Notes: generated by a model from the sequence alone, not told the origin. Positions 1,626 to 52,982 are shown, counted from the stretch's first letter. The stretch is DNA of 64,000 nucleotides from Flavobacteriales bacterium (GCA_028280815.1 JANQLC010000007.1:15037-79036); one strand, 5' to 3'. Made by a program: numbers and translations.

Positions 1626-1648
1626 TTGCAAAGGAAAAAACTAGGGTT

Positions 1649-2143: not shown

Positions 2144-2151
2144 GCGGTAAG

Positions 2152-4635: not shown

Positions 4636-4965
4636 AATCCCCGCGCAGATCCGGCGCCGTATCGACTAAAGACCCAACACCCAAAAACTGCAATCGGATT
4701 GCAAAAAATGGCTGAGGGGTGAATCAAAAAGTGGAATGGGAAAATCACCGAGGGAAAAACGCGACAAATACACCGTGTCAAGGGCATGTAACCCTAGAAT
4801 AAATCCCAGAGAAGCGGAGAATCTTCAAACCGATACCCTATACCAGAAGACCCGATAAAAACAGCTGCCCCAAGCACAGCAGCTGTAAAAGCAAACCGGC
4901 TGAGAAAGACCGGGTTCTGATTTAAATCCATACCTTTACAAAAAACTTTAAAGTCCCTTTAAAAT

Positions 4966-8575: not shown

Positions 8576-9208
8576 TTAAGACCTGAGTGACAATATATTT
8601 TCCAGCATAAAGACACAACCCTTTAACGCCACCTTCTTATGGCTTATCCATTCGAGATACATCCGTTTAAACCAATGCCGGGCAAAAAGTAAAACAGCTA
8701 CCAGAACAAAAATGTACACCAGAATCCAAAACCCATTGACGGCTATCGGATATAGATTTTTACGGTTATCATCATCCAAGGCGTTAATCCACAAAGCGAC
8801 CACAACGCTCAAAGAGGGAATGACAAAATACTTAAAAAACGAATCCACATATTTAAAAAGCGATTCAATATATGTAAACGGGTCAGACAGGGACTCTTTT
8901 ATCAGCTTAGTGGCTATGGCAATCCGCCCTTCAATTGTCGCGCTGGGCACTTCCTCATAGTATGCAAAGGCTTGGCGTATCCTTATATCGCTTAACGCTT
9001 GAGATTTCCACTTGCAAAAGCACTTGGGAACCGGCAATCCTTTCCGCTTTAGCTCCCTTCGCCTCTTATAGGTATCGAAAATGACGATACAAAATATGAA
9101 AATGACACTTAAAGCCACAAACCAAACCCACGATTTATCGTCGGCGACTAACACAAACCCTCTAGTTATAAAAGCTGCGATAGCTATAAGGACGAATACC
9201 CGTTTCAT
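8576..9208 (-). CDS. Hypothetical polytopic membrane protein (orphan, low GC)
   Basis: 210-aa ORF with about 4 hydrophobic helices and no family motif I recognise. Hand-counted 60-nt samples give 25-38% GC, against ~57% in the adjacent gene. Confidence 0.5.
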   Translation of the reverse strand: MKRVFVLIAIAAFITRGFVLVADDKSWVWFVALSVIFIFCIVIFDTYKRRRELKRKGLPVPKCFCKWKSQALSDIRIRQAFAYYEEVPSATIEGRIAIATKLIKESLSDPFTYIESLFKYVDSFFKYFVIPSLSVVVALWINALDDDNRKNLYPIAVNGFWILVYIFVLVAVLLFARHWFKRMYLEWISHKKVALKGCVFMLENILSLRS

Positions 9209-26927: not shown

Positions 26928-27521
26928 TTAGGCCCTCAGGATTTTGAATTCTCCGTTGTGGCCCAATTTGATAATGGTAGAACCGGCAAACCGGGCTTTT
27001 TTTTCTCGCTGCAAAGCTACGGCATAGTCCACAGCCCCCAAAATGGCTGTGTCGATTTCGTCAAAGCACATGGGGGGTAGCAAGCCACTGCGGTTGGCCG
27101 AAGTGGATACCAGCGGACGGTTGAGTCGGCGGATTAATCGCTGTAGCCATTTGTCATGCGTCAGTCGGATGCCGAGGGAGCCATCTGCTGCCGGTAAGTT
27201 GGGGGCTACGCCTGCAGCGCCCTCGTAGATCAGGGTCAAGGGTTTTTGGGCGGAACGCATCAGACTCCAAGCCCGATCCGGAATTTGGGGGACGAGTCGC
27301 ATCAAACGCTGCGCATCCTCGACCAATACGATCAGGGACTTGCCTCGGGGGCGTTTCTTAATGGCATAGATCTTTTCTACTGCCCTTTCATCTGTCGCAT
27401 CGCAGCCCAGCCCCCAAATCGTGTCGGTGGGGTAGAGGATGACACCGCCACGCTTCAATGTGGAAACGGCTCGATCCACGATTTCATCCCCGCTCATCGC
27501 AGGCCTCTTTTTAAGAGCCAA
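26928..27521 (-). CDS. tsaC: L-threonylcarbamoyladenylate synthase (YrdC/TsaC family)
   Basis: 197 aa with YrdC-like motifs (ILYPTDTIWGLGCDA, SANRSG). Confidence 0.85.
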   Translation of the reverse strand: MALKKRPAMSGDEIVDRAVSTLKRGGVILYPTDTIWGLGCDATDERAVEKIYAIKKRPRGKSLIVLVEDAQRLMRLVPQIPDRAWSLMRSAQKPLTLIYEGAAGVAPNLPAADGSLGIRLTHDKWLQRLIRRLNRPLVSTSANRSGLLPPMCFDEIDTAILGAVDYAVALQREKKARFAGSTIIKLGHNGEFKILRA

Positions 27522-28249
27522 TAAGAGCCAATATTTACGTAGCGCGTAAAGACGCCGTGGGCTTGTAATATGGCGAGGATAAAGCCATGGGTTCCATCCA
27601 GAAATCCCAAACGGATGATGTAGTGGTGAAAGAAACGAAAGGCCGGCTTTACGGTGAAGTGAAAGAGGTTGAGCGATTTGCCCTTAGCGTGTAATTCCTT
27701 TGCCTGCAGCCATTTGTAATGGTTCATCTTTCGGATATAGTGGTCGAACGATCTGTGGCCGTAGTGCGCCATTTTGTTTTTTAAAAAGCCCACTGAGCCA
27801 TCTATGTGCATTTTTTCGTGCACCAAACCGGTGTAATGTGCTTTATCGCGCTGAAACAAGCGGATCGTTTTATCCGTTTGCCAGCCACTGTATTTGATTC
27901 TTCGACCCATAAAGTGGTAAGTGCGAAATATCCAATATCCTTCTTTCGCATCGGGTGCTTGCATGGTGCTTTGTATCTCCCGTTGTAGGTCCGGTGTGAC
28001 TTCTTCATCTGCGTCTAAGAGCAAAACCCAGGCGTGAGATGTCTGTCGAATGGCGAAATTTTTTTATGCCGAGAAATTGTCGAACTTTCGATGGATTATC
28101 CGAGTGCCCTGTCTTCTCGCTATGGCGACGGATTGATCGGTACTTTCCGAATCGATTAGTATGATTTCATCCGCAAAACGAACGGATTGTAAAGCGCGAT
28201 CGATCACAGCGGCTTCGTTTAGTGCAGGTATAATAGCTGTTAGTGGCAT
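27494..28249 (-). pseudogene. Family-2 glycosyltransferase (LPS-core type) interrupted by an in-frame TAA
   Basis: Track ORFs 28064-28336 and 27494-28024 are in the same frame, separated by a single TAA (28064-28066). The read-through sequence is ..FDNFSA*KNFAIRQTSHAWVLLLDADEEV... Homologues as I recall them have Gln (CAA) at that position. Confidence 0.7.
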
Positions 28250-28304
28250 AAACGGGCTAAAGAAAAGGGTATAAATTTGTCGCAATATAAAGTAATACAA
28301 CGAT

Positions 28305-29129
28305 ATGCAGTTAAAATTATCTGTTGTTATCAGCACGTATAATATGCCGGAGTGGCTGGAAAAGGTTTTGTACGGTTACGAAAACCAGTGCTTCAAGTCC
28401 TTTGAGCTGCTGATAGCAGACGATGGTTCTGCGGTGGAAACCGAGCTGCTAATAGACGGGTTTAAAAAACGGAGCACGCTCATCCTAAAGCACGTATGGC
28501 AACCCGATAAGGGATTCCGAAAATCTGAGATACTGAATAAGGCTATCGCAAAAGCGCAGTCCGACTACCTCGTCTTTTCAGATGGTGATTGTATTCCAAG
28601 ATCTGATTTTCTAAGGGTTCACTACGAGAAGCGCAGGGGAAATCACTTCGTGTCAGGCGGCTATTTCAAGTTGCCCTTGAACCTATCGAAATCCATTTCA
28701 AAAGCCGATATTGATGCACAGCGCTGCTTTGATTTGGCTTGGTTGAAACAGCGGGGTTTAAAGAAATCCTTTAAGAATAATAAGCTGAGTAAAAACCGTC
28801 GATGGACTCGCTTTTTAGATCAGGTAACTCCAACAGAGGCAACTTGGAACGGTCACAACGCCAGCGGTTGGAAGTCCGATATTGTAGCGGCCAATGGTTT
28901 TGATCAGCGAATGCGTTATGGTGGTCAAGACAGGGAGCTCGGAGAGCGGATGATGAATGGGGGGATAAAAGCCATTCAGGCTCGGTATTCGGCTATATGC
29001 CTACACTTAGACCACGCCAGGCCCTATGTTGACAAAACCGATCTCAGCAGCAATATGAAGATAAGGCGGGAAGTCAAAGCCGCGAGAAAGACCTTCACCC
29101 CCTACGGTATTGAAAAGCGCGACTCGTAG
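28305..29129 (+). CDS. Family-2 glycosyltransferase
   Basis: 274 aa. It has the GT-A N-terminus LSVVISTYNMPEWL..LLIADDGS and a DGD motif (VFSDGDCIP). It is divergent from the interrupted GT2. Confidence 0.8.
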   Translation: MQLKLSVVISTYNMPEWLEKVLYGYENQCFKSFELLIADDGSAVETELLIDGFKKRSTLILKHVWQPDKGFRKSEILNKAIAKAQSDYLVFSDGDCIPRSDFLRVHYEKRRGNHFVSGGYFKLPLNLSKSISKADIDAQRCFDLAWLKQRGLKKSFKNNKLSKNRRWTRFLDQVTPTEATWNGHNASGWKSDIVAANGFDQRMRYGGQDRELGERMMNGGIKAIQARYSAICLHLDHARPYVDKTDLSSNMKIRREVKAARKTFTPYGIEKRDS

Positions 29130-30459: not shown

Positions 30460-31359
30460 ATGGGAATGATAAAACGTATCGTACAGCTTATGCGATTGCA
30501 ACAGTGGGTTAAAAACGCCTTTGTTTGGGTACCTGCTTTTTTTGCTGGGATTTTCTTTCAAAAGGGTGTTGTTATCGATCTGGGCTTGGGGTTTTTGGCT
30601 TTTGGCTTGGTGGCGAGCAGCATTTACATATTCAATGATTGTAGAGATGTGGTGCAAGACAGGCTACATCCGGTGAAAAAATACCGCCCGTTTGCAGCTG
30701 GGACCTTAGATGGGAAATTCGCTTGGGTTTTGTGCCCAGTCCTTTTGGCGCTGGGCTTGTCTATGGGCTATGGCCTATCTCGCTTCGGGTTTTATATCTT
30801 GGTGACCTATTTTATTTTAAACCTGCTCTACACCTTTTTGATAAAGAAAATCGCGATATTGGATGTAGTCCTCATCGCCTTTGGTTTTATTCTCCGCGTG
30901 CTCTTTGGTGGGCAGATCGTCGGAGTTGCTCCATCCAAGTGGCTGATTTTGGTGACGTTTTTATTGGCGCTGTTTTTGGGTCTGGCCAAGCGCCGGGATG
31001 AATTTATCGTTTTTACAAAAGGGGCTAAAACCCGTGATTCGATAACGGGCTACAACCTATCTTTTTTGGATATTTCACTGGTATTCACCGCTTCCGTTAC
31101 TGCGGTTTCCTATTTGATGTACGTTGTTTCCGATGAGGTAACGCATCGCTTTCAGACGGATTATCTGTATGTTACGGCTATTCCGGTAATCGTCGCTTTA
31201 ATGCGCTATTTGCAACTTTCAATGGTGTTTGAAAATACGGGCTCACTGATTCAAGTCTTGCTGCACGACCGGTTTACGCAATTCCTCGTCGTCATTTGGA
31301 TTGCCCTGTTTTTTCTCATTATTTATGTGGATGCTTTGAAAAAATGCCTTTTCGTATGA
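30460..31359 (+). CDS. UbiA-family prenyltransferase, decaprenyl-phosphate phosphoribosyltransferase-like
   Basis: 299 aa with about 8 TM helices. The N-terminus is LMRLQQWVKNAFVW. The Asp-rich motif is NDCRDVVQDRLHPVKKYRP (NDxxDxxxD). A second acidic region lies near KRRDEF. Confidence 0.8.
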   Translation: MGMIKRIVQLMRLQQWVKNAFVWVPAFFAGIFFQKGVVIDLGLGFLAFGLVASSIYIFNDCRDVVQDRLHPVKKYRPFAAGTLDGKFAWVLCPVLLALGLSMGYGLSRFGFYILVTYFILNLLYTFLIKKIAILDVVLIAFGFILRVLFGGQIVGVAPSKWLILVTFLLALFLGLAKRRDEFIVFTKGAKTRDSITGYNLSFLDISLVFTASVTAVSYLMYVVSDEVTHRFQTDYLYVTAIPVIVALMRYLQLSMVFENTGSLIQVLLHDRFTQFLVVIWIALFFLIIYVDALKKCLFV

Positions 31360-31499
31360 AAAGATGGCTTGTAAATCGGGGCAATCACTCGGTGGTAGCG
31401 ATGGAACAATCCGTAGAAACGGGGGTGTGTAAGGTGGATATGACGATGCGTTGTGTTGCTGATCAGACATATACCAGCGGGCATTTCTAAAAGATTGAA

Positions 31500-32090
31500 G
31501 TGGTGAAGCCCAATCTCGTCGTCTTTGATTTTGATGGCACCTTAACCCATGGGGATTCACTCTTGGCGTTTATCCGCTTTGTAAGGGGGGACCTCCCTTT
31601 TTATCTCGGGTTTTTGCAATTGTCTCCCTTTGTGCTGTGTTATTATCTGAGGTTGATCTCCAATCGCGATTTAAAGCAAAGGGTGCTCAGACACTTTTTT
31701 AAAGGGCTAAAGCAGGAGCGCCTTGAGGAAATGGGGATCGCCTTCTTTCAATCTGTTAGGGGCTTCTTCGTCAAGGAGAAAGTCGAGGAAAAACTGTTGA
31801 CTTACCAGACGAGAGGCGATGTAGTCGTCGTCGTTTCGGCCTCTTGTGCCGAATGGGTCAAGCCCTTTACCGATTATTGGCAGGTGCGTTTTATCGGTAC
31901 CCAACTCCAGTATAGGTCGGGTGCCTTTACCGGAAATATCCGGGGTAAAAATTGCTACGGTGCAGAAAAGCGCAAGCGGCTTGGCCAAAGCTATGACTTT
32001 GAAAAATTTGATAAAAAGATTGTCTTCGGCGACAGCCGCGGCGATCGAGCCTTGGCTGCCTGGGCAGATGAGTTTACTCGGGTGGGGTGA
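31500..32090 (+). CDS. HAD-IB family phosphatase
   Basis: 196 aa from a GTG start. HAD motif I is VVFDFDGTLT. The C-terminal motif is GDSRGD. Confidence 0.75.
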   Translation: MVKPNLVVFDFDGTLTHGDSLLAFIRFVRGDLPFYLGFLQLSPFVLCYYLRLISNRDLKQRVLRHFFKGLKQERLEEMGIAFFQSVRGFFVKEKVEEKLLTYQTRGDVVVVVSASCAEWVKPFTDYWQVRFIGTQLQYRSGAFTGNIRGKNCYGAEKRKRLGQSYDFEKFDKKIVFGDSRGDRALAAWADEFTRVG

Positions 32091-33585
32091 CCTTGTAAAC
32101 CCAATAGGTTTTCGGAATGGATAAGAGCGGTTTAAAAATATGCGGGTTCAGTTTGAACTTCTCCAGAAAATTTTTATCTGCAACCACATAGTCAAAGTGG
32201 TTTTGGATGCAGAATGCATTGATCCATTTGCGATCTGCTGGCCTTATCATGAGGGCTGCATTGAAAGTCGAAGCGACATCGTAGTCTGTAAGCCTGGGAT
32301 TGAAAGCAATCGAGGTGGGCGCTAAAACTCGGCTACCCTTGGGAATGGTTTGGTTTACCATCTTATAAACGCGGTATATATCGGTGTTTTTTTTGAAGAT
32401 AAAGTAAGTGCATTGGTAAATGGCCATGGAGAAGCTGCAACCTAAGACCAGGATGGCGATGTAGTGGGTGTAGTCTTTTCTGGAAAGCGCTATTGAAATT
32501 GCATAAGCGATTAAAACAAGGGCGTATGGATATAGGTAAATGTTGTAGAATAAGCCGCTTTTTGAAAGGAAAAAGAGCGCGAAGATCAGTATGGCCAAGT
32601 AGCGGACTTCAGCCTTTACAGCTGTAATATTATGGCGAACTAGAAAATACAAAGTCAAAATAAGGGGAATGCTGTAGGCCAGTTCACGGCTACTTCTAAA
32701 AAATAGGGTGTTTAACTTTCTCCATGTGATGTGGAAAGGAAGGGAATTTCTGATGTAGCCACTATTTACTGTAGCGGGATGTATGTTGAGCCTTTCCCAC
32801 CAGCTCAGGTAGGCGTGATCGTAAACCACGTCGACAAAATAGAACAGGCAGATCGAAGCCCCCAGGCCAAAGAGTAAAACAGACCTAAAATTCTTGTGGT
32901 ATAAAGCGATATAAATCACACCGGCTAGTATGAAGACCAGCGCGTTTAAGTGGAATAATACCGCTATGCCGGCAAAGAGCCCGGCGAGGAGGAATGATTT
33001 TTTCCCGCGTTGTACTTTCAAATGCCGGAACGATAGATAGCCGAAAAGCGCTACTGCGATTTCTGGCCGATAGGTGAAGGATATATAGATCAAATTGGGT
33101 AGCGCCAGAAAGTAAAACAACAGGATTAAAATCGATGTATGCTTATGCGGTAGTCGATTCCGATAATCGTATAAAACGATGCCGATTAGCGCGATGTAAG
33201 CAGCTAAGCTTATGGATTTTAAGAGATAGGGGTTGAAGTGGCCGATCAGGTAGATCAGCAAGCCGCCCAACCAGATGAATAGTTTGTGATATACGTAGAT
33301 TGGTGTTCCCCCCATGCCAAACTGCTGGTAGTAGAGCTCGAAGAGCCTGGTCTTTACCCTGCCACAGTTTGCCATGGCATGGGCTTGTTCGCCCAGCCAA
33401 CCGTCGTCTGCGTAGATAAACCGGTGGTACAAGCTCCATAGGAAGAAAATCGCCAATAGGTAGATCAGAATTTTTAAGGCGGTTTCACTATTTAGGGTGG
33501 GTCGTTTTGTCTTGCTCACAGCGCGCTGTTTTTGAATGGGCAAATATAAAAGGATTATGAATGCTTTAATCGCCTCGTATGACAT
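32074..33585 (-). CDS. Polytopic membrane glycosyltransferase, GT-C fold (ArnT/PMT-like)
   Basis: 503 aa with about 11-12 TM helices. An acidic motif (FIYADDGW) sits in the first extracytoplasmic loop, as in GT-C enzymes. A ~90-aa soluble tail follows. The gene is convergent with the HAD gene and overlaps it by 17 nt. Confidence 0.6.
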   Translation of the reverse strand: MSYEAIKAFIILLYLPIQKQRAVSKTKRPTLNSETALKILIYLLAIFFLWSLYHRFIYADDGWLGEQAHAMANCGRVKTRLFELYYQQFGMGGTPIYVYHKLFIWLGGLLIYLIGHFNPYLLKSISLAAYIALIGIVLYDYRNRLPHKHTSILILLFYFLALPNLIYISFTYRPEIAVALFGYLSFRHLKVQRGKKSFLLAGLFAGIAVLFHLNALVFILAGVIYIALYHKNFRSVLLFGLGASICLFYFVDVVYDHAYLSWWERLNIHPATVNSGYIRNSLPFHITWRKLNTLFFRSSRELAYSIPLILTLYFLVRHNITAVKAEVRYLAILIFALFFLSKSGLFYNIYLYPYALVLIAYAISIALSRKDYTHYIAILVLGCSFSMAIYQCTYFIFKKNTDIYRVYKMVNQTIPKGSRVLAPTSIAFNPRLTDYDVASTFNAALMIRPADRKWINAFCIQNHFDYVVADKNFLEKFKLNPHIFKPLLSIPKTYWVYKVTPPE

Positions 33586-33594
33586 GCGAGCGAA

Positions 33595-35469
33595 CTACTT
33601 CGCTATCAAAATCGGTATGGGGGTGATGTGGCGCAGGCGGTTCACCGTTTCCCCGAAAAAGTAGTCGCGCCAGCTGCGGTGGCCATGGCTGCCGACGACC
33701 AACAAATCGCAGCTTTCCCCCGTGGCGACTCGTCTGATAAAGTCGCAGCGATTGCCGTATCCCAGTCGGGTTTTAACGGCCATCCCCAACGCTTCGATTC
33801 GCGCCTTGTAATGCTGCAGGTACACCTCGTCTTCGCGAAATTCCAAATCGTCGGGTTTGGAATCGGAATACACCGCTGCTGCGCTCTCGGCTACGTGGAT
33901 GAGAATGAAGGTGGTGTCGGCTTGCGAAAACTGTAAAGCGGTTTGAATTACCTTTTCATCATGAGTTGAAAAGTCCAGCGCCAAGCCGATTTTTTGTAAG
34001 CGGGTTCTAGGTGTATTCAAGTTCAAATCCAGCGGTTTGGGATGGATGGGTCTGCCCGTTCTCGCCGCTTTTTTGGTCTGCAGCAGCGGCCAAAGGGTCA
34101 CGGCTGCCATCAGGCCGATAAAACCCAGACCCAAAGCGATAAAGAGACCCTTTAGTTCGATGGAATCGGTTTGGATGAAGTATCCCATCAGGGAATCGAC
34201 CACCAATTTTAAGTTTAACCCTGCGATAACGGCTATGATGATCCAGCCTATTGCCTTCCAAAAGGCGTGAAGGGTGAATTCGCCCATGGTTTTCCGATCG
34301 CTCACGAAGTGGAGCAGTGGAATGATGGCAAAGGAGAGCTGTAGGCTCAACACCACCTGGCTGAGTATCAATAAGCCGTTTAACGACCGATCGCCAAATA
34401 GCAGCAGTGCGATCACAGCGGGTATGATGGCCAGCCCCCTGGATAGCAACCGCCTGGCTACTGGGCTGATGCGCAGTTGCAAATAGCCCTCCATGACGAT
34501 TTGTCCGGCTAACGTGCCGGTAAGCGTAGAGCTCTGCCCGGCGGCGATCAGCGCGATGGCAAATAGGATGGAAGCCCATCGGGTGCCGAGCAATGGTGCG
34601 AGCAAGCGCTGTGCATCGGCCAACTCGGCTATGTGCATGTACTCGGTATTGAAAAACACGGCACCCGCGAGGATTAAAATCGCCGCGTTGACCAAAAAGG
34701 CTAAGTTTAGTGCAATGGTGCTGTCCAGTAGGTTGAAGCGCAGTGCCCTTCTGATGGCTTTCGGTTGGCGCAGTGTTTTTCGGGATTGCACCAGCGCGGA
34801 GTGCAGGTATAAATTGTGGGGCATGACCGTAGCGCCTATGATGCCAATGCTGATGTACAGCGCCGCTGCATTGGGAATGCTCGGTTTGAGCCCCGAGGCG
34901 ATGGCTGAGAAGCTCGGTTTGGCCCAAAACAACTCCAGAAAGAAACAAACGCCGATGACGAGAATCAAGGCGATGATGAAAGCCTCTATCGTTCGTATGC
35001 CCAGTTTTTGCAGGTAAAAGATGAACATGGTGTCCAGCAAGGTGATCAGCACGCCCCATAGGAGTGGTAAGCCAAAGAGCATATTCAAACCGATGGCTAC
35101 CCCCAGCACTTCAGCTAAATCGCATGCGATAATAGCCAGTTCGGCTAAACCGTAAAGGATGTAATTCATCCCCCTCGGGAAGGTGGCCCGGTTGGCCTGT
35201 GCCAAATCCAGACCGCGGACGATTCCCAGCCGCGCGCTCAGGCTCTGCAAGAACAGCGCCATGAGATTGCTCACCAACAAGACCCAAAGCAATTTGTATT
35301 CAAATTGTGCCCCCCCAGCGACATCGGTAGCCCAATTGCCCGGATCCATATATCCCACGCTGACCAGGTAAGCCGGACCAAACCATGCCAAAAGCCTTTG
35401 CCAACCCTTTTTTTGGGTTTCCGGGTCAATGCTGGCATGAAACTCACTGAGGGATTTGTCTAGCTTCAC
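33595..35469 (-). CDS. mntH: Nramp-family divalent metal transporter fused to a C-terminal universal stress protein (USP) domain
   Basis: 624 aa. The Nramp signature is GYMDPGNWATDVAGG. The last ~140 aa (..FILIHVAES..LLVVGSHGHRSW..GETVNRL..IPILI) look like UspA. Confidence 0.85.
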   Translation of the reverse strand: MKLDKSLSEFHASIDPETQKKGWQRLLAWFGPAYLVSVGYMDPGNWATDVAGGAQFEYKLLWVLLVSNLMALFLQSLSARLGIVRGLDLAQANRATFPRGMNYILYGLAELAIIACDLAEVLGVAIGLNMLFGLPLLWGVLITLLDTMFIFYLQKLGIRTIEAFIIALILVIGVCFFLELFWAKPSFSAIASGLKPSIPNAAALYISIGIIGATVMPHNLYLHSALVQSRKTLRQPKAIRRALRFNLLDSTIALNLAFLVNAAILILAGAVFFNTEYMHIAELADAQRLLAPLLGTRWASILFAIALIAAGQSSTLTGTLAGQIVMEGYLQLRISPVARRLLSRGLAIIPAVIALLLFGDRSLNGLLILSQVVLSLQLSFAIIPLLHFVSDRKTMGEFTLHAFWKAIGWIIIAVIAGLNLKLVVDSLMGYFIQTDSIELKGLFIALGLGFIGLMAAVTLWPLLQTKKAARTGRPIHPKPLDLNLNTPRTRLQKIGLALDFSTHDEKVIQTALQFSQADTTFILIHVAESAAAVYSDSKPDDLEFREDEVYLQHYKARIEALGMAVKTRLGYGNRCDFIRRVATGESCDLLVVGSHGHRSWRDYFFGETVNRLRHITPIPILIAK

Positions 35470-39283: not shown

Positions 39284-40792
39284 TCAATTCCTTCGCGTCC
39301 TGCCTCGTGTCTTGTATCCCACCCTGTCCATGGCGCATCGAAAGCCGATCCAGGAGGTGGCTTGATCCGCTCGCATAAACCGGCGCTTGGCTGGGTCTAA
39401 CCAGTAGGCGCGATCGCGCCAAGACCCCCCTTTGACGACCCGTAATTCACCATGCCTACTGGCGGCTTTGCCAGCGACTGGCGCGCGATCTGTGGGGGTG
39501 CCTTCATCGCGGTAGTCACCCGCTGGATATTCAGCTGTATCGCCTAACGCTTTGTAGCGCACTTGGCCGGGTAGGTTGTGGTAAACCAATTTGCCATTGG
39601 GTAAGGTATCGTAGGTAACCGTCTCGTTGATCACGGCTGTCTTTCCATCTTCGCGCATCACCTTTGTAAAAGTGCTGCCCCTATAGTAATTGAGGTCGCT
39701 GATCGATTCATCGATGATCGGCTTATATACATCGGCTACCCACTCTGCTACATTGCCTTCCATATCGTATAACCCCGTGTCATTGGGCGGAAATGCCTTG
39801 GTTTCTGACGGGGTTATAGCCCCGTCATTGGGCCAACCCGCTACACCGCTGTAATCGCCGGTCCGCCGCTTGAAATTGGCGAGGAAGTCACCGCTTTTGC
39901 TGATGCGTCGACTTCGCAGCTGCTCGATGGGTGATTTCCTTCCCTTTCGCGTATTGTAAACGCGCCCTTGACTGGGAACCACAGCTGCATATTCCCACTC
40001 CACTTCAGTGGGGAGGCGGTAAGCGGGGAGCAATATCCCATCTTCTCGCCCGACCACGTCGCTTTTCCGCTTCTTGCCGCGCTTAACCGCTCTGCCTGAC
40101 GAGGTGCCACGAGCTGTGGAGTCGCTTGCCACCGGATTCGAGGCATCGGATTCATTTAAATAGGCTTCGGTGGAAAAGTGGTCGGCACCATAAGCCTCAG
40201 CTGCATCTCTCTCGTTTATATAGCCCGATTTGATCAGGATTCGTTCGTTTACGCGATCGGTTCGCCAGGCTGCATAACGCTTGGCCTGAAGCCAGTTCAC
40301 GCCCACTACGGGGTAGTAGTTGTAAGCGGGATGCCAAAGGTAATTTTTTACGTACACCTCGTTGTATGAAAGCGCATGGCGCCATACGGTGGTATCCGGT
40401 AAAGCGCTCGACCATATTTTGGAAAACCGCTCATCAGTGGGTGGAAAAACCTTTTTGAGCCAGCTGAGGTATTCCCGATAGGCGATGTTGGTCACTTCCG
40501 TTTCGTCCATATAGAATGAATGCACCTGTTGCCGTGTCGGTGCATTATTCCAGTCGTGCATGACGTCTTCTCGGGTGCGTCCCATCACGAAAGTCCCCCC
40601 CTCGATAAAGACCAATCCCGGCCCGGCTTTTTGGTGATTGCGACGGATTTTGACTTGAGATACGCCCGCTGGACCGCTGAGGTCCCAACCCGTGGTTTCG
40701 GATCTGCCATTCCTGCCTCTGCCGCCGAAAAAAAGACTGCAACTCGAAAGGAATAGGGAGGGTACGATGCGGATTAAAGCGCTTTTCATCAT
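39284..40792 (-). CDS. gldJ: Gliding motility lipoprotein GldJ (SUMF1/FGE-like, GldK paralogue)
   Basis: 502 aa with a lipobox (LFLSSC|S). FGE-type motifs are VEWEYAA, KGGSW and GFRC. It sits next to murF. Confidence 0.85.
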   Translation of the reverse strand: MMKSALIRIVPSLFLSSCSLFFGGRGRNGRSETTGWDLSGPAGVSQVKIRRNHQKAGPGLVFIEGGTFVMGRTREDVMHDWNNAPTRQQVHSFYMDETEVTNIAYREYLSWLKKVFPPTDERFSKIWSSALPDTTVWRHALSYNEVYVKNYLWHPAYNYYPVVGVNWLQAKRYAAWRTDRVNERILIKSGYINERDAAEAYGADHFSTEAYLNESDASNPVASDSTARGTSSGRAVKRGKKRKSDVVGREDGILLPAYRLPTEVEWEYAAVVPSQGRVYNTRKGRKSPIEQLRSRRISKSGDFLANFKRRTGDYSGVAGWPNDGAITPSETKAFPPNDTGLYDMEGNVAEWVADVYKPIIDESISDLNYYRGSTFTKVMREDGKTAVINETVTYDTLPNGKLVYHNLPGQVRYKALGDTAEYPAGDYRDEGTPTDRAPVAGKAASRHGELRVVKGGSWRDRAYWLDPAKRRFMRADQATSWIGFRCAMDRVGYKTRGRTRRN

Positions 40793-44259: not shown

Positions 44260-44284
44260 TCGCTTGCTGCAGCAATGAATTTTT

Positions 44285-44310
44285 GGGCCTCGCTTAGCGA
44301 GGCTTTTTTT
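44285..44310 (+). terminator. Rho-independent terminator of the csp gene
   Basis: GCCTCGC (44287-44293), a TTA loop and GCGAGGC (44297-44303), followed by T7 (44304-44310). Confidence 0.65.
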
Positions 44311-46140
44311 GTCCTTGCCCCCTTGTGCAGGCTTGAGCGCTCGGTCTCGTTTTCTCAGCCTTGGGTTTTTTACGTTTGTCTCTCATTCAATTGGCTTGGG
44401 GGATTTGGGGTGCTTGCACGGATGCATTATTGCGTTGGTTGGCGGTGACGTGGCTGGGTTGAGTTGCTGCGTTGGCGGTTGGTTAGCTGTGCTGGCTTGA
44501 ATGGGGTTGATCGGGTTGCGCTGTTGGGTTATTAAGTTGGTTTTTTGACGCTGTTGGTGTGCTTGGGTTGCTTTCTCGGCTTTGTCTTTTTGTGCGCGCT
44601 TCAAGGCTTGGGCCTGCTCTCCAATGCTGTTTGGCAGTTGAAAAGGAACTGTTTTTTCCGCTGGGCTGATCGGCTTTGTCGTGTATTTGTCTCGGCAGGC
44701 CTTTTTACCGTGATCGGTGGGGCAGCAGCTGTAATGCGCTGATTTGAGGGGCGTCCCCGTTTTTTGGTGCCCTCTCTTTGTGGCGGTTAAAAAGAGGGGT
44801 TTGTCCTTTTAAGCTCCGTCTTCTCGCGATCGTTGGAAAGCGGAAATTGCTTTTTGTTTTGGCTTTGCGTGTGTGGGTTCTCAGCGGGTTTGGGCTGCTT
44901 GGGTAGCGGTTGCTTCGACGACTGAGTAGGGCTGGATCGTCGAATGGGTTGGAGCGGTTGGTCTGTCCAGTGAATTGGCTTGTCGCTGTGATGGATTGAG
45001 TGCGTGGATGGATTGGGACTACTCGATTGATTCAGTGAGCTGCTGCGTGGGCCTGTGGGTTGGATTGAGCAGCTCGGATGGGTTTGTCCTTCGTCGAGCG
45101 CCTTGCATGGGATCTTTCTACAGTTGATGTAGGTGGCTTTTGGACTGCGTTGTTTTCCCCCTTCCTTATGCCGGGTTTTTTGCATTTGTCTTTTCTGTGA
45201 TGGGCGTATGCGGGTTTGTCGGTTGGGGGCTGTCATTCCGCTGCGTTTGCATAGGAGGTGCTTTGGTATTGTTCCTGTCGGGATTTTGCATTTGTCTTTT
45301 CTGCGATGGGTGTAAGTGGCTTTTGGGCTTCTCGTTTTTTGTCCCTTGTCCCCATTCGGGCTTTTCGCATGGTTTCGTACAATTTGTGTAGGCAGATTTT
45401 GGTTTCCCTGGCTTGGATTGGGTGCGCGGATGGGTTGGTGGGTTCAGTGAGTCGGTTTGTCGTTGTGGTTGATTGGGCGGGTGAAGGGGTTGACTTATTC
45501 AGTGGGTTGGATTGTTTGAGCTGCTTGGTTTGGTGGGTTGTTGTGATGGGTTCATCGGTGCATGGGTTTGGAAAAGGCGGTTTCTCTTTTGGTCTTTCCC
45601 TTTTGTGACTGTTTGGGATGCTGCACGTATTTCCCCCTTCTCGTTTGAGTTGGTTTGAAATCGCAAAAGCACGACTGTGTCCTCACCATTGAATGGGGGT
45701 TGAAAAAGTGGACGTTGTTTTTTATTTTGTCTTGTGTGGTGTCTTGAGAAGAGGGTGTGACTCTTTTGTCTCTGCCTTGCATGAGACATCTGATCCCTTA
45801 TTCTTTTGTCCTTGTTATCGATCACCAATTTAAAGGAGGAGGAGGTTTGTTTTTATCTCTCGGAGCGGGCCAAAGCTCATGAGCGTTTTTGTCTTTGCCT
45901 CTATGAGACCGTTTGAAAGCGCTGTTTTGTCTTTTGGTGTTCATCGTTGAGACCTTGAAAGGTAGGAGTTATCCTTTGCTTTTGTCCTTTTTTGGGGTGA
46001 GAAGAGCTGTTTTTCTGCGCTCGTCCTTTGTTGGTACTCATCCTGTCTCGCAGTTTAAAAAGCGCGTGCTATCCTTTGTTTTTATCCTTTTTGAGTCGGC
46101 GATCGGCTTTTCGCTCGTCTGGAGTCGACATCTCAGGCGA
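44311..46140. repeat. 1.8-kb gene-free, G+T-skewed tract of nested degenerate repeats
   Basis: TTTGTC occurs 18 times on the + strand, and I saw no GACAAA on the + strand. Near-identical ~37-nt copies lie at 45172-45208 and 45278-45314. There are three GGNTTG-rich blocks. Reverse-complement copies of the ~40-bp unit lie at 45880-46100. Confidence 0.7.
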
Positions 46141-49751: not shown

Positions 49752-50798
49752 ATGGAGTTTTCAGCGATCGAAATAGCGGGGATTTTGCATGGGGAAGTGC
49801 AGGGAGACCCAAATGTGCGGATAGATAAGCTGACCAAGATAGAGGAAGCCCAAACCGGGAGCCTCTCTTTTTTGGCCAACCCGAAGTACAGTCATTACCT
49901 CTACCATACCCGCGCATCAGCGGTAATTGTAAACCGGACTTTTGTCCCTGAGAAGGCGGTTACACCTACCTTAATTCGCGTGGATGATGCATACCGGGCC
50001 TTTTCCGAACTGTTGAAATGCTACGATCGGTCTGCGGCTGATCGAGTGGGAATTGAAAAGCACAGTTTCATAGCCCGATCCGCTCGTCTCGGCGACTCGG
50101 TTTACATCGGTGCTTTTTCCTATGTCGGTGCGCATGTAAAGCTAGCCGATCGCGTGCGGATTTACCCCCATGTTTACGTAGGCAATGGGGTTGAGATCGG
50201 TTCCGATACGGTGATTTTTCCTGGGGTTAGAATCTATTTTAACACCCGAATCGGAAAGCGGTGCACCCTGCACAGCAATGCGGTGATAGGTGCAGATGGC
50301 TTTGGTTTTGCGCCCAACGGCGAGAACCATTACGACAAAATTCCGCAGACGGGCAACGTCGTTGTCGAAGACTTTGTCGAGATCGGTTCGGGAACTACCA
50401 TAGATCGCGCCACGTTGGGATCTACCGTGATTCGAACCGGGGTCAAACTCGACAACCAGATACAAATCGCCCACAATGTCGACCTCGGTTCGCATACCGT
50501 GATTGCGGCGCAAACCGGTATAGCCGGCTCCACCAAGGTCGGTGAGAACTGTATGATCGGCGGACAGGTGGGTATTGTCGGTCACCTCAACATCGGCGAC
50601 CGCGTAAGGATTGCAGCCCAGTCTGGCGTTACATCCGATTTGCCCGATGATACGACTTGGTTTGGTTCGCCCGCCATGGCGGCCAAGGCGTATAGAAAAT
50701 CTTTTGTCTATTTCAGAAAGCTGCCCGAGGTGGTGAAGTGTTTGGAGTCTTTGGAGAAGCGAGTGGGAGAGATGGAGAGGGGTAAAGATGTCCGATAA
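49752..50798 (+). CDS. lpxD: UDP-3-O-acylglucosamine N-acyltransferase
   Basis: Hexapeptide-repeat protein. The N-terminus MEFSAIEIAGILHGEVQGD is typical of LpxD. I prefer the ATG at 49752 over the track's TTG at 49743. Confidence 0.9.
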   Translation: MEFSAIEIAGILHGEVQGDPNVRIDKLTKIEEAQTGSLSFLANPKYSHYLYHTRASAVIVNRTFVPEKAVTPTLIRVDDAYRAFSELLKCYDRSAADRVGIEKHSFIARSARLGDSVYIGAFSYVGAHVKLADRVRIYPHVYVGNGVEIGSDTVIFPGVRIYFNTRIGKRCTLHSNAVIGADGFGFAPNGENHYDKIPQTGNVVVEDFVEIGSGTTIDRATLGSTVIRTGVKLDNQIQIAHNVDLGSHTVIAAQTGIAGSTKVGENCMIGGQVGIVGHLNIGDRVRIAAQSGVTSDLPDDTTWFGSPAMAAKAYRKSFVYFRKLPEVVKCLESLEKRVGEMERGKDVR

Positions 50799-52179
50799 CC
50801 AAAAAACCTTAGCGAGGGCAAAAACCTTATCCGGCATTGGATTGCACATGGGCAGGCGAGTCGAGGTAAGCCTTAAGCCCGCCAAGCCCAATACGGGCTT
50901 TGTCTTTGTCAGAACCGACTTAGAGGGCAACCCGAGGGTCGAGGCGTTGGCCAACTACGTCTGCGACACGGAGCGTGGAACGAGCTTGGAGAAAAGGGGC
51001 GTTCGCGTACATACGACGGAACACATCTTGGCTGCGCTCGTCGGCATGGATTTGGATAATGTCTGCGTTGAATTAGACGGTCCTGAGCTGCCCATCATGG
51101 ATGGCTCCGCCAAGTACTTCACCCAAGCCATTGAATCGGTCGGCTTGCGGAAACAGGAGGCGGAAAGGGAATACCATACGATCGAAGAGGTCGTCTCTTA
51201 TACCCATCCTGAAACGGGTAGTGAAATGATCGCCATGCCCTTCGACCGGTATCAGGTGACGGCTCTGGTCGATTTCGGCACAAAGGTTTTGGGCACCCAA
51301 AATGCAACGCTCAAAGATTTGCGAGATTTTAAGACCGAGATTTCCAATGCGCGAACCTTTAGTTTTTTACATGAGTTGGAGAGGCTATTGGACGCGGGTT
51401 TGATCAAAGGCGGGGATTTGAACAACGCCATTATTTATGTCGATGCGGAAATCTCGTCCGAAACGAAAGACAAGCTCAAAAAGGCATTTCAAAAGGATTC
51501 CATTTCCATCAAGCCCAATGGCATTTTAGACAACCTCAGTCTGCGCTATCCCAATGAGGCGGCACGTCACAAATTGTTAGATGTATTGGGGGATTTGGCA
51601 TTGGCCGGAACGCGTATCAAGGGAAAGGTGATCGCCACCAAGCCCGGCCACTTTGTCAATACGCAGTTTGCCAGAAAACTGCAGAAGCACATTGAAATGG
51701 CCAAGCACAGGCTGGTGCCGAAGTACGACCGCGCTATGCCTCCTCTTATGGATATCGGAGATATCATGGCGAGATTGCCCCATCGCCCGCCTTTCCTACT
51801 CGTAGATCGGATAATTGAGATGAGCGATAACCATATCGTCGGCCTTAAGAATGTAACCATGAACGAGCCTTTCTTCAGCGGTCACTTTCCCGGTGTGCCG
51901 CTGATGCCCGGCGTCTTGCAGATCGAGGCCATGGCTCAGGTGGGGGGTATTTTAGCCCTATCACAGGTCGAAGACCCCGAAAACTACCTCACTTATTTTA
52001 TGCGGATCAAAAACGCTCGCTTCAAGCAAAAGGTTTTTCCAGGTGATACATTGATCTTTAAATTGCAGCTGGTCTCCCCGATCCGCCGGGGGATATGCCA
52101 TATGCAAGGCCGCGGTTACGTCGGCGAAAAACAGGTCGTGGAAGCAGAGCTCATGGCCCAGATAACCAAGGAAAGGTAA
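50788..52179 (+). CDS. lpxC/fabZ: Bifunctional UDP-3-O-acyl-GlcNAc deacetylase / 3-hydroxyacyl-ACP dehydratase
   Basis: 463 aa. The N-terminal LpxC part includes HTTEHILAAL. The C-terminal FabZ hot-dog part includes LPHRPPFLLVD and FFSGHFPG. Confidence 0.92.
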   Translation: MSDNQKTLARAKTLSGIGLHMGRRVEVSLKPAKPNTGFVFVRTDLEGNPRVEALANYVCDTERGTSLEKRGVRVHTTEHILAALVGMDLDNVCVELDGPELPIMDGSAKYFTQAIESVGLRKQEAEREYHTIEEVVSYTHPETGSEMIAMPFDRYQVTALVDFGTKVLGTQNATLKDLRDFKTEISNARTFSFLHELERLLDAGLIKGGDLNNAIIYVDAEISSETKDKLKKAFQKDSISIKPNGILDNLSLRYPNEAARHKLLDVLGDLALAGTRIKGKVIATKPGHFVNTQFARKLQKHIEMAKHRLVPKYDRAMPPLMDIGDIMARLPHRPPFLLVDRIIEMSDNHIVGLKNVTMNEPFFSGHFPGVPLMPGVLQIEAMAQVGGILALSQVEDPENYLTYFMRIKNARFKQKVFPGDTLIFKLQLVSPIRRGICHMQGRGYVGEKQVVEAELMAQITKER

Positions 52180-52187
52180 TGGCGTAG

Positions 52188-52982
52188 ATGATTCAACCCT
52201 TAGCGTCTATAGACCCCGGTGCCAAAATCGCAAAAAATGTTGTGATACAACCCTTTGCGACAATTCAAGCCGATGTGGAAATCGGTGAAGGTACCCGGAT
52301 AGGCTCGAACGCGATCATCATGGAAGGGGCGCGTATCGGGAAGAACTGCCATATCTTTCCCGGCGCGGTCATAGCTGCTGTCCCTCAGGATTTGAAGTTT
52401 AACGGTGAAAAGACTACAGTCGAGATCGGTGACCACACCGCCATTCGCGAATGCGTGACCATCAATCGCGGTACGCTGCGCAGGCTCAAAACCAAAATTG
52501 GGAAGCGCAACTTGATTATGGCCTATAGCCATATCGCACATGATTGCATCGTGGGGGATCATTGCATTTTCTCCAATAACAGCACCTTAGCCGGTCACAT
52601 CACGGTGGGCGACTACGTCATTTTGGCGGGGATGACCGCTGTGCATCAATTCTGTACCATAGGGCGCCACGCCTTTGTCACCGGCGGCTCGCTGGTTCGA
52701 AAAGATGTGCCGCCCTATGTAAAAGCCGCGCGCGAACCCCTTTCCTATGTCGGAATCAATTCCATCGGTTTGCGCAGAAGGGGATTTACCGCTGAAAAGA
52801 TCAGGGAAATACAGAACATCTACCGCGTTTTATATCAAAAAAATTACAATACCTCTCAGGCGGTCGATGTCATTGAAGCCGAGATGGAGGCTACCTCAGA
52901 GCGCGATGAGATCCTGACATTTATCAAGGATTCCAGGCGGGGAATTATGAAGGGGTATTTTATGAACAACTCATTGAAATAG
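52188..52982 (+). CDS. lpxA: Acyl-ACP--UDP-GlcNAc O-acyltransferase
   Basis: 264 aa with left-handed beta-helix hexapeptide repeats and LpxA order within the lpx cluster. Confidence 0.92.
   Translation: MIQPLASIDPGAKIAKNVVIQPFATIQADVEIGEGTRIGSNAIIMEGARIGKNCHIFPGAVIAAVPQDLKFNGEKTTVEIGDHTAIRECVTINRGTLRRLKTKIGKRNLIMAYSHIAHDCIVGDHCIFSNNSTLAGHITVGDYVILAGMTAVHQFCTIGRHAFVTGGSLVRKDVPPYVKAAREPLSYVGINSIGLRRRGFTAEKIREIQNIYRVLYQKNYNTSQAVDVIEAEMEATSERDEILTFIKDSRRGIMKGYFMNNSLK

Follow-up and report, generated by a model that had tools for sequence, protein, structure and literature searches.

Gene content and setting of the locus

The stretch of DNA analysed here (the window; 64,000 nucleotides from an uncultured Flavobacteriales bacterium) carries, between positions 30,460 and 33,585, the three open reading frames that the initial annotation had described, all of them present. 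The first (30460..31359, plus strand) is assigned from profiles, similarity to Rv3806c and conserved residues to the UbiA-superfamily polyprenyl-phosphate 5-phosphoribosyltransferases (PPPRS, or DPPR-synthase homologues). It is followed by the relic of a dprE2 3' end (31429..31503, plus strand) and by the gene of a HAD-IB phosphatase (31500..32090, plus strand), recognised from Pfam, TIGR01488 and motifs and a candidate polyprenyl-P-ribose-5-phosphate 5-phosphatase. The last gene (32074..33585, minus strand) encodes a membrane glycosyltransferase of predicted GT-C fold that resembles ArnT and PMT_2 proteins and carries a small C-terminal periplasmic alpha/beta domain, as judged from a family alignment, AlphaFold and Foldseek. 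The motifs quoted earlier are found as NDCRDVVQD in the UbiA-type protein (residues 59-67), DFDGT in the HAD protein (10-14) and YADDGW in the 503-aa reading frame (58-63). One correction concerns orientation, as the GT-C gene lies on the minus strand and is convergent with the UbiA-HAD pair. This arrangement is kept in the related loci L003 and L006, and the 3' ends of the GT-C and HAD genes overlap by 17 bp in the window, L003, L004, L005 and L006.

The surroundings of the cassette are housekeeping genes (def, ruvX, Nramp, lnt), with no recognisable glycan gene cluster around the locus. Two GT2 genes, one inactivated, had been noted upstream, and both are indeed found: GT2a (28305-29129) is intact and GT2b (27497-28249, minus strand) contains a single in-frame stop at 28064-28066. 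A low GC content had also been noted and was thought to allow a foreign origin. The UbiA and GT-C genes do lie below the average of 50.4% (sd 3.6%) for genes of the window, at 44.0% and 44.2% rather than the 37-40% first estimated, while the HAD gene is at 49.1%. GC3 is normal in all three (51, 57 and 56% for UbiA, HAD and GT-C, against a window mean of 57%, sd 6%); the dip lies in codon positions 1 and 2 and therefore reflects amino-acid composition, which lends no support to a foreign origin.

All three genes are under purifying selection. Their dN/dS values of 0.10-0.24 (0.15 for UbiA, 0.10 for HAD) match the range of def, GT2a and Nramp, as an average over the whole divergence in which a very recent loss of constraint would stay hidden.

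The UbiA-type and HAD-IB genes and the dprE2 relic

The probable start of the UbiA-type gene is the ATG at 30466, giving a protein of 297 aa, as in the database protein P0010. The protein matches Pfam UbiA. In NCBIfam it reaches 227, 197 and 145 bits with the DPPRS models and 178 bits with the fused HAD-UbiA model NF006088, compared with at most 53 bits for the best other prenyltransferase model. It falls below the NCBI equivalog cutoffs (227.4 vs 234 for NF008977; 197.1 vs 207 for NF008978), a narrow miss of the kind expected for a divergent phylum. Mycobacterium tuberculosis Rv3806c (8j8j) matches residues 3-283 (E 4.7e-33), and Rv3806c chains are the only matches in a sequence search of the PDB. 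The resemblance to Rv3806c-type enzymes suggested earlier is therefore borne out, as the protein groups with DPPR synthases and apart from the MenA, heme O and UbiA enzymes. In Rv3806c, the residues binding Mg2+ and PRPP are N73 and D77 of the NDxxDxxxD motif, K28, Q135, K143 and K208 (PMC10994848). Residues K18, N59, D60, D63, D67 and K129 of the UbiA-type protein correspond to Rv3806c K28, N73, D74, D77, D81 and K143, the position of Q135 is occupied by Asn (N121), and the equivalent of K208 is ambiguous, falling in a gapped loop of the alignment. With the PPPRS half of a fused Rhizobium enzyme (PMC11127046), the protein shares 31% identity (E 2e-29). By its sequence, then, the UbiA-type gene encodes a homologue of decaprenyl- or polyprenyl-phosphate 5-phosphoribosyltransferases that keeps most of the PRPP- and Mg-binding residues.

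The HAD gene probably starts at the GTG at 31503. Its product matches Pfam PF12710 (E 4.6e-28) and scores above the TIGR01488 cutoff (61.9 vs 45 bits) and below that of TIGR01490 (87.8 vs 98.3 bits). The motifs are complete, with D10xD12GT as motif I, S113 as motif II and GD178SxxD182 as motif IV, and K156 does not vary across the family alignment (A4). Motifs I-IV, together with the TIGR01488 score, place the protein in the HAD-IB family, as had been proposed. The closest solved structures are phosphoserine phosphatases. A HAD-type 5-phosphatase is a proven partner of PPPRS in Citrobacter youngae ORF15 (PMC11127046). Profile comparison by hhalign aligns the HAD family with the phosphoribose 5-phosphatase (PRP) domain of the fused Rhizobium enzyme at a probability of 94.8%, and pairwise BLAST between the two covers motifs I and IV only (E 0.018). 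HAD orthologues or family members adjoin DPPRS-like UbiA homologues in four other taxa (Segatella, Prevotella, Parvicella and Thiomicrospira); orthologues of 35-37% identity do so at loci L010, L011 and L012, and a member of the A4 family at L024. In addition, the HAD gene directly follows DprE2 in every epimerase-bearing cassette examined. Its substrate would presumably be polyprenyl-P-ribose-5-phosphate.

The full cassette is found in the relative L006, where it occupies the same chromosomal slot between Nramp and def and reads UbiA-DprE1-DprE2-HAD with two GT-C paralogues. Its two extra genes match DprE1 (E 9e-120) and DprE2 (E 2e-37). The initial annotation saw no DprE1/DprE2-type epimerase in the window, and tblastn with the L006 proteins agrees, returning only the short relic, which spans 25 codons with an in-frame stop in place of Trp. 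The relic translation VRWI*RCVVLLIRHIPAGISKRLKW aligns to VKWIWRYIMWLIKQLPEGVFKRIKW* of L006 with a score of 77, compared with 23.9 +/- 4.9 for shuffled sequences, and 0 of 2000 shuffles scored as high. Further matches of the relic are to the C-terminal ends of DprE2 in L011 and L022 (0/2000 shuffles each) and, less strongly, in L012 (p = 0.003). Across the junction of relic and HAD gene, the window and L006 are 79% identical over 96 nt, and the relic end overlaps the HAD start exactly as dprE2 does in L006. The relic and the full cassette at the same site indicate that the epimerase pair was deleted in the window lineage. The predicted donor is consequently polyprenyl-P-ribofuranose, which strengthens the earlier suggestion of a polyprenyl-P-ribose rather than an arabinose donor. 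Such a switch has a precedent in C. youngae, where epimerase loss between O2 and O1 changes the sugar and the GT-C accepts the new donor (PMC11127046).

An arabinofuranose donor could still be made if epimerases of the DprE1/DprE2 type were encoded elsewhere in the genome, as the search covered 64 kb out of a contig that is at least 154 kb long. This is very improbable, given that the cognate pair has been deleted from the cassette with a relic left behind, that the tblastn search found nothing else in the window, and that the epimerases lie inside the cassette wherever they are present among the cassettes examined.

Comparison of relatives at this slot reveals a graded loss. L003 has lost dprE1-dprE2 through a different deletion that left 44 dprE1 codons, with UbiA, HAD and GT-C intact. 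L002 and L004/L005, the nearest relatives of the window by flanking genes (dS about 0.5), have both lost UbiA and kept an intact GT-C gene; half of the HAD gene is left in L004/L005 and only a fragment (43% identical) in L002. The trio is thus co-located in both other UbiA-bearing relatives (L003 and L006), and the UbiA-HAD pair recurs across phyla. Gene co-conservation, the grouping of the UbiA-type protein and the fold of the GT-C protein, on which the initial annotation had made its reading depend, all favour that reading.

The same series from L006 through the window and L003 to L004/L005 and L002 could also be read as decay, the pathway being dead since the loss of the epimerases, with UbiA and HAD merely not yet degraded and the GT-C serving another role or also being lost. 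The closest relatives of the window are precisely those without UbiA and HAD, one of the GT2 genes nearby is interrupted by a nonsense codon, and a flippase gene was not found in the 64 kb. Set against this, the three reading frames are intact with all catalytic motifs conserved, and UbiA and HAD evolve at the dN/dS of their housekeeping neighbours, averaged as above. Two independent deletions, moreover, took exactly dprE1-dprE2 and spared UbiA, HAD and GT-C, a precision that looks more like selection for a sugar switch than random decay, and a dead pathway is unlikely.

The GT-C membrane protein and its partners

More than 90% of homologues of the GT-C protein begin at the column of the GTG at 33519, the likely start, which gives a protein of 481 aa. 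A candidate Bacteroidota -7 promoter element, TATATTTG, was located by pattern search at 33541..33548 (minus strand), 22 nt upstream of this start. Many other genes of the window also have this motif shortly before their start (e.g., at 28272, 35475, 37195, 37228, 41590 and 48464), and its total in the window is not significantly over chance (48 observed, 38.5 expected).

Sequence searches of Pfam, NCBIfam and the PDB gave no match for the protein itself, nor does PMT_2 (PF13231) match it at the gathering threshold. It belongs to a family of 377 clusters, and PF13231 is matched at E <= 0.01 by 55 of the 88 aligned relatives (best E 1.1e-12) and at E 0.0014 by the paralogue P0006. D60 and R173 are invariant in 88 sequences, and E66, H100, K101, P174, E175, H212 and N214 are nearly so; one close relative has Gly in place of D61. 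D60 is positioned at the start of the helix that follows TM1 (residues 33-52), and the basic residues predict a cytoplasmic N-terminus, so that D60 would fall in the first extracytoplasmic loop. With a deeper alignment, AlphaFold gave a model with a pLDDT of 92.1 and a pTM of 0.91, whose top Foldseek match in the PDB is ArnT (5ezm; E 7.7e-7, TM 0.54), followed by AglB, STT3, DPY19, ALG9, AftA, PglB, Emb and AftD. All 20 of the 20 PDB matches at E <= 0.001 are GT-C enzymes. The model therefore predicts a GT-C fold for the product of the 503-aa reading frame with high confidence, as the initial annotation had supposed.

The tie between this enzyme and the UbiA and HAD genes is less direct. Retention of the GT-C without UbiA and HAD in the nearest relatives suggests either that it does not depend on them or that the cassette is decaying in that subclade; in view of this loss, both a functional link of the GT-C to UbiA and HAD and the present functionality of the cassette are presumed. 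The GT-C might instead use another polyprenyl-phosphate sugar made elsewhere, such as a hexose supplied by a GT2-type synthase, its adjacency being historical and the UbiA/HAD product going to another transferase elsewhere. Consistent with this, the intact GT-C genes of L002 and L004/L005 show a dN/dS of 0.25 between them, the gene is encoded on the other strand and has a candidate promoter of its own, and distant family members adjoin a 364-aa GT2 or another PMT_2 protein instead of UbiA genes. The family also lacks detectable sequence similarity to the 658-aa candidate GT136-type protein of Rhizobium CCGE531, a reference system in PMC11127046 (hhalign probability of 0.2% with the A2 family profile). 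Against such independence, any UbiA, HAD or HAD remnant in the clade has the GT-C as its immediate convergent neighbour, and the 17-bp overlap is the same in the window, L003, L004, L005 and L006. The L006 cassette holds no candidate transferase besides its two GT-C paralogues, and the donor module of other DPPRS cassettes invariably has a large polytopic protein, of varying family, as its partner. GT-C enzymes of such systems can be promiscuous for donors (PMC11127046), which could explain retention after donor loss. Independence of the GT-C from UbiA and HAD is rather improbable.

No flippase gene (MATE, SMR or GtrA) is found in the cassette or in the whole 64 kb. Two GtrA proteins had no tblastn match in the window, and no small reading frame with at least three TM segments lies near the cassette. 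The remaining multi-TM reading frames of the window are AI-2E, a CDP-OH transferase, Lnt, Nramp and an unassigned one of 210 aa (8576-9208) about 21 kb away. The Segatella, Thiomicrospira and Rhizobium cassettes do carry a flippase gene.

Proposed pathway and related pentofuranose systems

On balance, the three genes probably constitute a reduced Bacteroidota version of an extracytoplasmic pentofuranose glycosylation pathway whose donor would now be ribofuranose. This reading builds on what is directly seen: the synteny and the epimerase relic, the assignment of families and folds, the conservation of catalytic residues, and purifying selection on the genes. In the first step, at the cytoplasmic face of the membrane, a polyprenyl phosphate (presumably undecaprenyl-P) would receive 5-phosphoribose from PRPP through the UbiA-type enzyme, and the HAD-IB enzyme would remove the 5-phosphate to yield polyprenyl-P-ribofuranose. 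The lipid-linked pentose would then be flipped across the membrane by some protein, and on the periplasmic side the ArnT-like GT-C may hand the pentofuranose to an acceptor by means of the invariant D60 just after TM1. The HAD substrate, action of the GT-C on the UbiA/HAD product, the flipping step, an acceptor and activity of the pathway today are what we infer from this scheme. The ancestral cassette would have encoded DprE1 and DprE2 as well and made an arabinofuranose donor, and their deletion in the window lineage would have put ribofuranose in its place.

This logic has already been published, as the pentofuranose 'three-component systems' whose prototype in C. youngae O1/O2 consists of ORF15 (PRP-PPPRS), ORF14 (flippase) and ORF12 (GT-C, GT136), with optional epimerases (Kelly et al., PNAS 2024, PMC11127046). 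The two systems share a PRPP-using UbiA-type PPPRS, a HAD-superfamily 5-phosphatase (a candidate in the window) and a GT-C-fold transferase with an Asp after TM1 that is counted as essential. In both, the presence or absence of epimerases sets the pentose added (a prediction for the window), and epimerase remnants persist, as orf13 in C. youngae O1 and as the dprE2 relic in the window. New at the present locus are the Bacteroidota host, the split HAD, a GT-C unlike the candidate GT136-type protein and the absence of a linked flippase. The HAD is a separate gene rather than an N-terminal domain, an arrangement mentioned for one phage genome only (PMC11127046). The GT-C is PMT_2/ArnT-like and lacks a C-terminal CBM. 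Unlike the C. youngae type, the window has no linked MATE or SMR flippase and its locus lies among housekeeping genes instead of in an O-antigen cluster. Bacteroidota are unmentioned in the main text and in the supplement text searched of PMC11127046.

The mycobacterial decaprenyl-phospho-arabinose (DPA) pathway comprises the Rv3806c DPPR synthase, the Rv3807c phosphatase, DprE1/DprE2, Rv3789 and the Emb/Aft GT-C arabinosyltransferases. It resembles the window in its Rv3806c homologue with catalytic residues, reaction order and final GT-C fold, and L006 adds homologues of DprE1 and DprE2. It differs in a phosphatase of the Rv3807c type instead of HAD-IB, in DprE1/DprE2, which are deleted in the window, and in the GtrA-family Rv3789, which has no homologue there. 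At 481 aa the window GT-C is small, and it stands nearer to ArnT than to the Emb and Aft enzymes; the carrier lipid is presumably undecaprenyl-P, unlike that of the DPA pathway.

Pilin D-arabinofuranosylation in Pseudomonas aeruginosa Pa5196/PA7 likewise joins, in a Gram-negative host, a PPPRS (DPPRS homologue) to a GT-C enzyme, TfpW. Epimerases (DprE1/E2 homologues) are present there, and the phosphatase is of another family than the window HAD (PMC11127046). TfpW polymerises Araf on pilin, whereas no pilin gene lies near the window cassette. A role of TfpW itself in translocation is raised as a possibility in its preprint (10.1101/2020.04.19.049825), which would set a precedent for cassettes that lack a flippase gene.

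It is conceivable, though doubtful, that the locus is a recombination-prone, serotype-like site of uncultured Flavobacteriales at which a surface glycan is switched among arabinofuranose, ribofuranose and no pentose, with an ArnT-like GT-C that tolerates different donors. If so, switching would proceed through recurrent, independent losses of either dprE1/dprE2 or the entire donor module, together with exchange of divergent HAD and GT-C alleles, and the transferase would belong to a previously unrecognised ArnT-like GT-C family, perhaps one without need for a dedicated flippase. The structure that matches the window GT-C best is that of ArnT itself (GT83), the undecaprenyl-P-L-Ara4N:lipid A transferase, an enzyme of similar size and also with a small C-terminal periplasmic domain. 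The two differ in sequence (10-12% identity), in the arnBCADEF-type donor genes, which the window does not contain, and in their donors, a PRPP-derived pentofuranose being predicted for the window and nucleotide-sugar-derived Ara4N serving ArnT.

The three genes and their protein families

All three open reading frames proposed in the initial annotation, with every motif it quoted, are present in the window. A UbiA-type protein is encoded at 30460-31359 on the + strand (299-aa ORF; likely start ATG 30466), followed on the same strand by a HAD protein at 31500-32090 (196-aa ORF; likely start GTG 31503). A polytopic membrane protein is encoded at 32074-33585 on the - strand (503-aa ORF), convergent with the other two genes and sharing a 17 bp 3' overlap with the HAD gene. 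Its likely start is GTG 33519, as this column is the start in >90% of homologues and a candidate -7 motif of the Bacteroidota type, TATATTTG, precedes it by 22 nt. Scanning the cassette for sigma-70 promoters and terminators yielded nothing informative. Directly upstream of the membrane protein gene, on the same strand, lies an MntH-type Nramp gene (33595-35469, -) fused to a C-terminal universal stress protein (Usp) domain (624 aa), a fusion kept in all relatives.

A drop in GC content had been reported here, with membrane-protein composition or foreign origin as possible reasons. The dip is real and smaller than first stated, with 44.0% for UbiA, 49.1% for HAD and 44.2% for the membrane protein gene against a window gene mean of 50.4% (sd 3.6%). 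The GC3 values of 51, 57 and 56%, respectively, are normal relative to the mean of 57% (sd 6%), so the dip reflects amino acid composition rather than foreign DNA, and the suggestion of foreign origin is rejected.

On the three NCBIfam models for decaprenyl-phosphate phosphoribosyltransferases the UbiA protein reaches 227, 197 and 145 bits, and on NF006088, a fused HAD-UbiA model, 178 bits; no other prenyltransferase model gives more than 53 bits. Its sole PDB sequence match is Mycobacterium tuberculosis Rv3806c (E 4.7e-33, residues 3-283), in which Mg2+, ribose, the 5-phosphate and pyrophosphate are bound by K28, N73, D77, Q135, K143 and K208 (PMC10994848). The counterparts of the first five residues are K18, N59, D63, N121 and K129, and the position of K208 is ambiguous. 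The HAD protein belongs to subfamily IB (PF12710, E 5e-28; TIGR01488 score above the cutoff), with motifs I to IV intact.

Searches of Pfam, NCBIfam and PDB sequences with the 503-aa protein, alone or in profile form, gave no match. Close relatives number only nine among 5.8 billion clustered proteins, and a word-indexed homology search with the profile of an 88-sequence alignment returned the same nine; an exhaustive profile search widens the family to 377 clusters at about 25% identity. A locus search with the nine-sequence alignment found one close locus among genomes, in a Flavobacteriales MAG, and none among metagenomes. Of the named relatives, the MAG 'Flavobacteriales bacterium MAG2-Ocu2016' is the closest. 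Among the 88 aligned family members, 55 match Pfam PMT_2. D60 and R173 are invariant in the family, and E66, H100, K101, P174, E175, H212 and N214 are nearly so. An AlphaFold model built from the nine-sequence alignment was unusable and was discarded (pLDDT 43.5), and that from the 88-sequence alignment reached a pLDDT of 92.1 and a pTM of 0.91. In a Foldseek search of the PDB with the predicted fold, all 20 matches with E <= 0.001 are GT-C enzymes, led by ArnT (E 7.7e-7, TM 0.54) and followed by AglB/STT3, DPY19, ALG9, AftA, PglB, EmbA/B/C and AftD, which bears out the earlier GT-C assignment. The D60-D61 pair is predicted to lie where the first extracytoplasmic helix after TM1 begins, the site of the GT-C catalytic Asp.

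Gene loss and probable allele exchange in one chromosomal slot

The close relatives of the locus all occupy one chromosomal slot, between Nramp-Usp and def-ruvX-GT2. The fullest cassette (L006) encodes UbiA, homologues of the epimerases DprE1 (NF053785, E 9e-120) and DprE2 (NF053786, E 2e-37), which turn a ribose donor into an arabinose donor, HAD, two tandem GT-C paralogues and an FkbM methyltransferase. The paralogues (L006 1975-4957) are 66% identical, and the FkbM-family gene lies at L006 1114-1854; methyltransferase remnants persist in L004 and L005, with none in the window. The window and L003 retain UbiA, HAD and one GT-C.

In the window, a relic of dprE2 remains at 31429-31503, reading VRWI*RCVVLLIRHIPAGISKRLKW compared to VKWIWRYIMWLIKQLPEGVFKRIKW* in L006. 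The alignment score of 77 was reached by 0 of 2000 shuffles (24 +/- 5), DNA identity is 79% across 96 nt, and the end of the relic overlaps the HAD start codon exactly as in L006. The dprE1-dprE2 pair is missing from L003 as well, by another deletion, which spared the first 44 codons of dprE1. Together, these two observations mean that the epimerase pair was lost on at least two independent occasions, each of which left UbiA, HAD and GT-C intact. It is quite improbable that the epimerases are encoded elsewhere and the donor is still arabinose.

Further loss is seen in L004 and L005, where UbiA is gone and HAD is reduced to its C-terminal half, and in L002, which has only a HAD fragment (43% identical). 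GT-C is intact in every one of these relatives. Judged by divergence of the flanks, L002 and L004 (dS ~0.5), the lineages that lost UbiA and HAD, are nearest to the window. It is conceivable, though fairly unlikely, that the window cassette is itself a decaying relic; beside the losses among its relatives stand dN/dS values of 0.15 for UbiA, 0.10 for HAD and 0.11-0.24 for GT-C, in the company of 0.10-0.23 for def, GT2a and Nramp.

The dS of HAD and GT-C is far above that of the flanks. Between L003 and L006, dS is 0.00 for def, 0.07 for GT2a, 0.22 for UbiA, 1.15 for HAD and ~1.0 for GT-C. Amino acid identity is 100% for def and DUF5606, 98% for GT2a, 96% for UbiA and 97% for the FkbM methyltransferase, then 75% for HAD and 65-71% for GT-C. 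With a dS of ~1 in the HAD/GT-C segment against 0-0.07 in the flanks, the mosaic indicates allelic replacement of this segment, an exchange of old alleles like that at surface-antigen loci.

The two upstream GT2 genes are as previously described, with GT2a intact and GT2b (248 aa; 27497-28249, -) carrying one in-frame stop, the nonsense codon at 28064-28066. GT2b is disabled in exactly the two dprE1/dprE2-deleted lineages that keep UbiA, HAD and GT-C, L003 (8019-8315) lacking the N-terminal 146 codons, and is intact in L006, L002, L004 and L005. This coincidence (n = 2) could be due to chance or to GT2b acting on the same glycan. A role for GT2b as a polyprenyl-P-sugar synthase feeding GT-C was considered and is unsupported, as it has generic GT2 matches only and none near a curated cutoff. 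Another disrupted version of the locus is found on the metagenomic contig L020 (925-1782, 2360-4572). There, a shortened GT-C homologue (393 aa, plus an ORF of 58 aa) adjoins a DDE transposase, and the HAD ORF convergent with it is lengthened to 260 aa.

Relation to published pentofuranose systems

In Citrobacter youngae, alpha-ribofuranose side chains are added by three components, a fused HAD(PRP)-UbiA polyprenyl phosphoribose synthase (PPPRS), in which PRP is the HAD-type 5-phosphatase, a small flippase and a GT-C that founded GT136 (Kelly et al., PNAS 2024, PMC11127046). An SDR epimerase turns the donor into xylofuranose, and the GT-C takes either donor; serotype O1 was derived from O2 via loss of the epimerase, of which remnants remain (PMC11127046). 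Systems containing Araf carry DprE1/E2 homologues (PMC11127046). In membrane assays with PRPP and farnesyl-P, that study reports a farnesyl-P-Ribf species (m/z 435) and a 5-phosphate species (m/z 513). The strategy is described as widespread, with examples from Proteobacteria, Gram-positives and one phage, and among the examples given, only the phage has a split PRP (PMC11127046). The main text and the supplement text searched make no mention of Bacteroidota, and a literature search found no other paper on a pentofuranose system in this phylum.

A plasmid system of Rhizobium sp. CCGE531, among those named in that study, served for comparison. Its PPPRS half aligns end to end with the window UbiA (31% identity, E 2e-29). 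The standalone HAD family matches its PRP domain at the profile level only (hhalign 94.8%, E 5e-8), with BLAST of the window HAD recovering only motifs I and IV, and the GT-C family shows no similarity to its 658-aa GT-C candidate (hhalign 0.2%). No MATE, SMR or GtrA flippase genes were found in the 64-kb window. The concept is already published, and the window locus is a new variant of it: unlike three-component systems of the C. youngae type, it is found in Bacteroidota, has a split HAD-IB and a GT-C from an apparently different sequence family, lacks a linked flippase and lies among housekeeping genes.

The earlier interpretation of the three genes as a polyprenyl-phospho-pentose pathway is supported. 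Of the readings compared, the likeliest, at somewhat better than even odds, is that the genes operate as a three-component pentofuranose system now supplied with polyprenyl-P-ribofuranose as donor. UbiA would convert PRPP and polyprenyl-P, the HAD would take off the 5-phosphate, some protein would flip the lipid-linked product, and the ArnT-like GT-C would pass the sugar to an acceptor. The strongest support comes from the two independent, precise epimerase deletions that spared the other three genes, along with the constant adjacency of GT-C to HAD or its remnants. The strongest counterpoint, however, is that the nearest relatives retain GT-C after losing the donor genes. Distant members of the GT-C family are likewise not linked to UbiA genes. 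A GT-C independent of UbiA and HAD is an unlikely alternative, favoured by these two observations and opposed by the constant adjacency.

If the proposed ribofuranose pathway is correct, the 2024 three-component concept extends to Bacteroidota, and a new GT-C family invisible to Pfam (~377 clusters) is tied to a defined donor. With a full cassette, epimerase-deleted forms and forms without donor genes at one site, the relatives make up a natural comparison set that could reveal how gene loss changes the pentose on a bacterial surface glycan.

Wider distribution and other features of the window

The UbiA+HAD module appears widespread in Bacteroidota, including human oral Segatella and Prevotella, and is still uncharacterised. 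Segatella oris (L010, 8001-9842) encodes UbiA-HAD-GtrA, and Prevotella sp. oral taxon 299 (L024, 8001-9654) encodes UbiA and then the same HAD, which the HAD family profile matches at E 5e-66. Parvicella encodes UbiA, a 564-aa 10-TM protein, DprE1, DprE2 and HAD, and Thiomicrospira encodes UbiA, GtrA, a 560-aa 11-TM protein, DprE1, DprE2 and HAD. The Segatella, Parvicella and Thiomicrospira HADs are 35-37% identical to that of the window. Two Cytophagales plasmids carry UbiA-DprE1-DprE2 without the window-type HAD, and several GT39-annotated proteins lie near UbiA-DprE1-DprE2 on the Chondrinema plasmid. The large polytopic partners have no sequence relation to one another or to the window GT-C family. 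In genomes whose GT-C partner is labelled just hypothetical, the UbiA+HAD pair is a useful bioinformatic marker for glycosylation with lipid-linked ribose or arabinose.

The operons of the oral Bacteroidota lack DprE1/E2 and a recognisable GT-C. That of Segatella, whose UbiA protein is found on >24 contigs, adjoins a membrane Sulfatase-family protein and two Acyl_transf_3 genes. None of the window's close relatives is in culture, and these operons could offer a culturable Bacteroidota model for a pathway based on lipid-linked ribose. Many phyla are rich in UbiA homologues at 45-49% identity to the window protein. Another homologue (41% identity, E 3e-54) is found at 4874-5749 of MT837543.1, an unannotated 6.6-kb 'Bacteriophage sp.' fragment from human faeces, which recalls the published phage-borne pentofuranose system (PMC11127046).

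Elsewhere in the window, FGE-sulfatase-domain proteins, a GldL N-terminal-domain protein, an LpxC-FabZ fusion and LpxA (231-3717, 39284-40792, 50788-52982) place the organism in Bacteroidota with LPS. A 1.9-kb ORF-poor stretch at 44260-46140 shows extreme strand bias, the + strand being 38% T, 31.5% G, 18% C and 12% A, and harbours degenerate direct repeats of 30-44 nt. No Rfam family matches it, and conservation in L002 is limited to its first ~50 nt. Its minus strand holds a 218-codon stop-free frame of low complexity, rich in P/Q/S/K.
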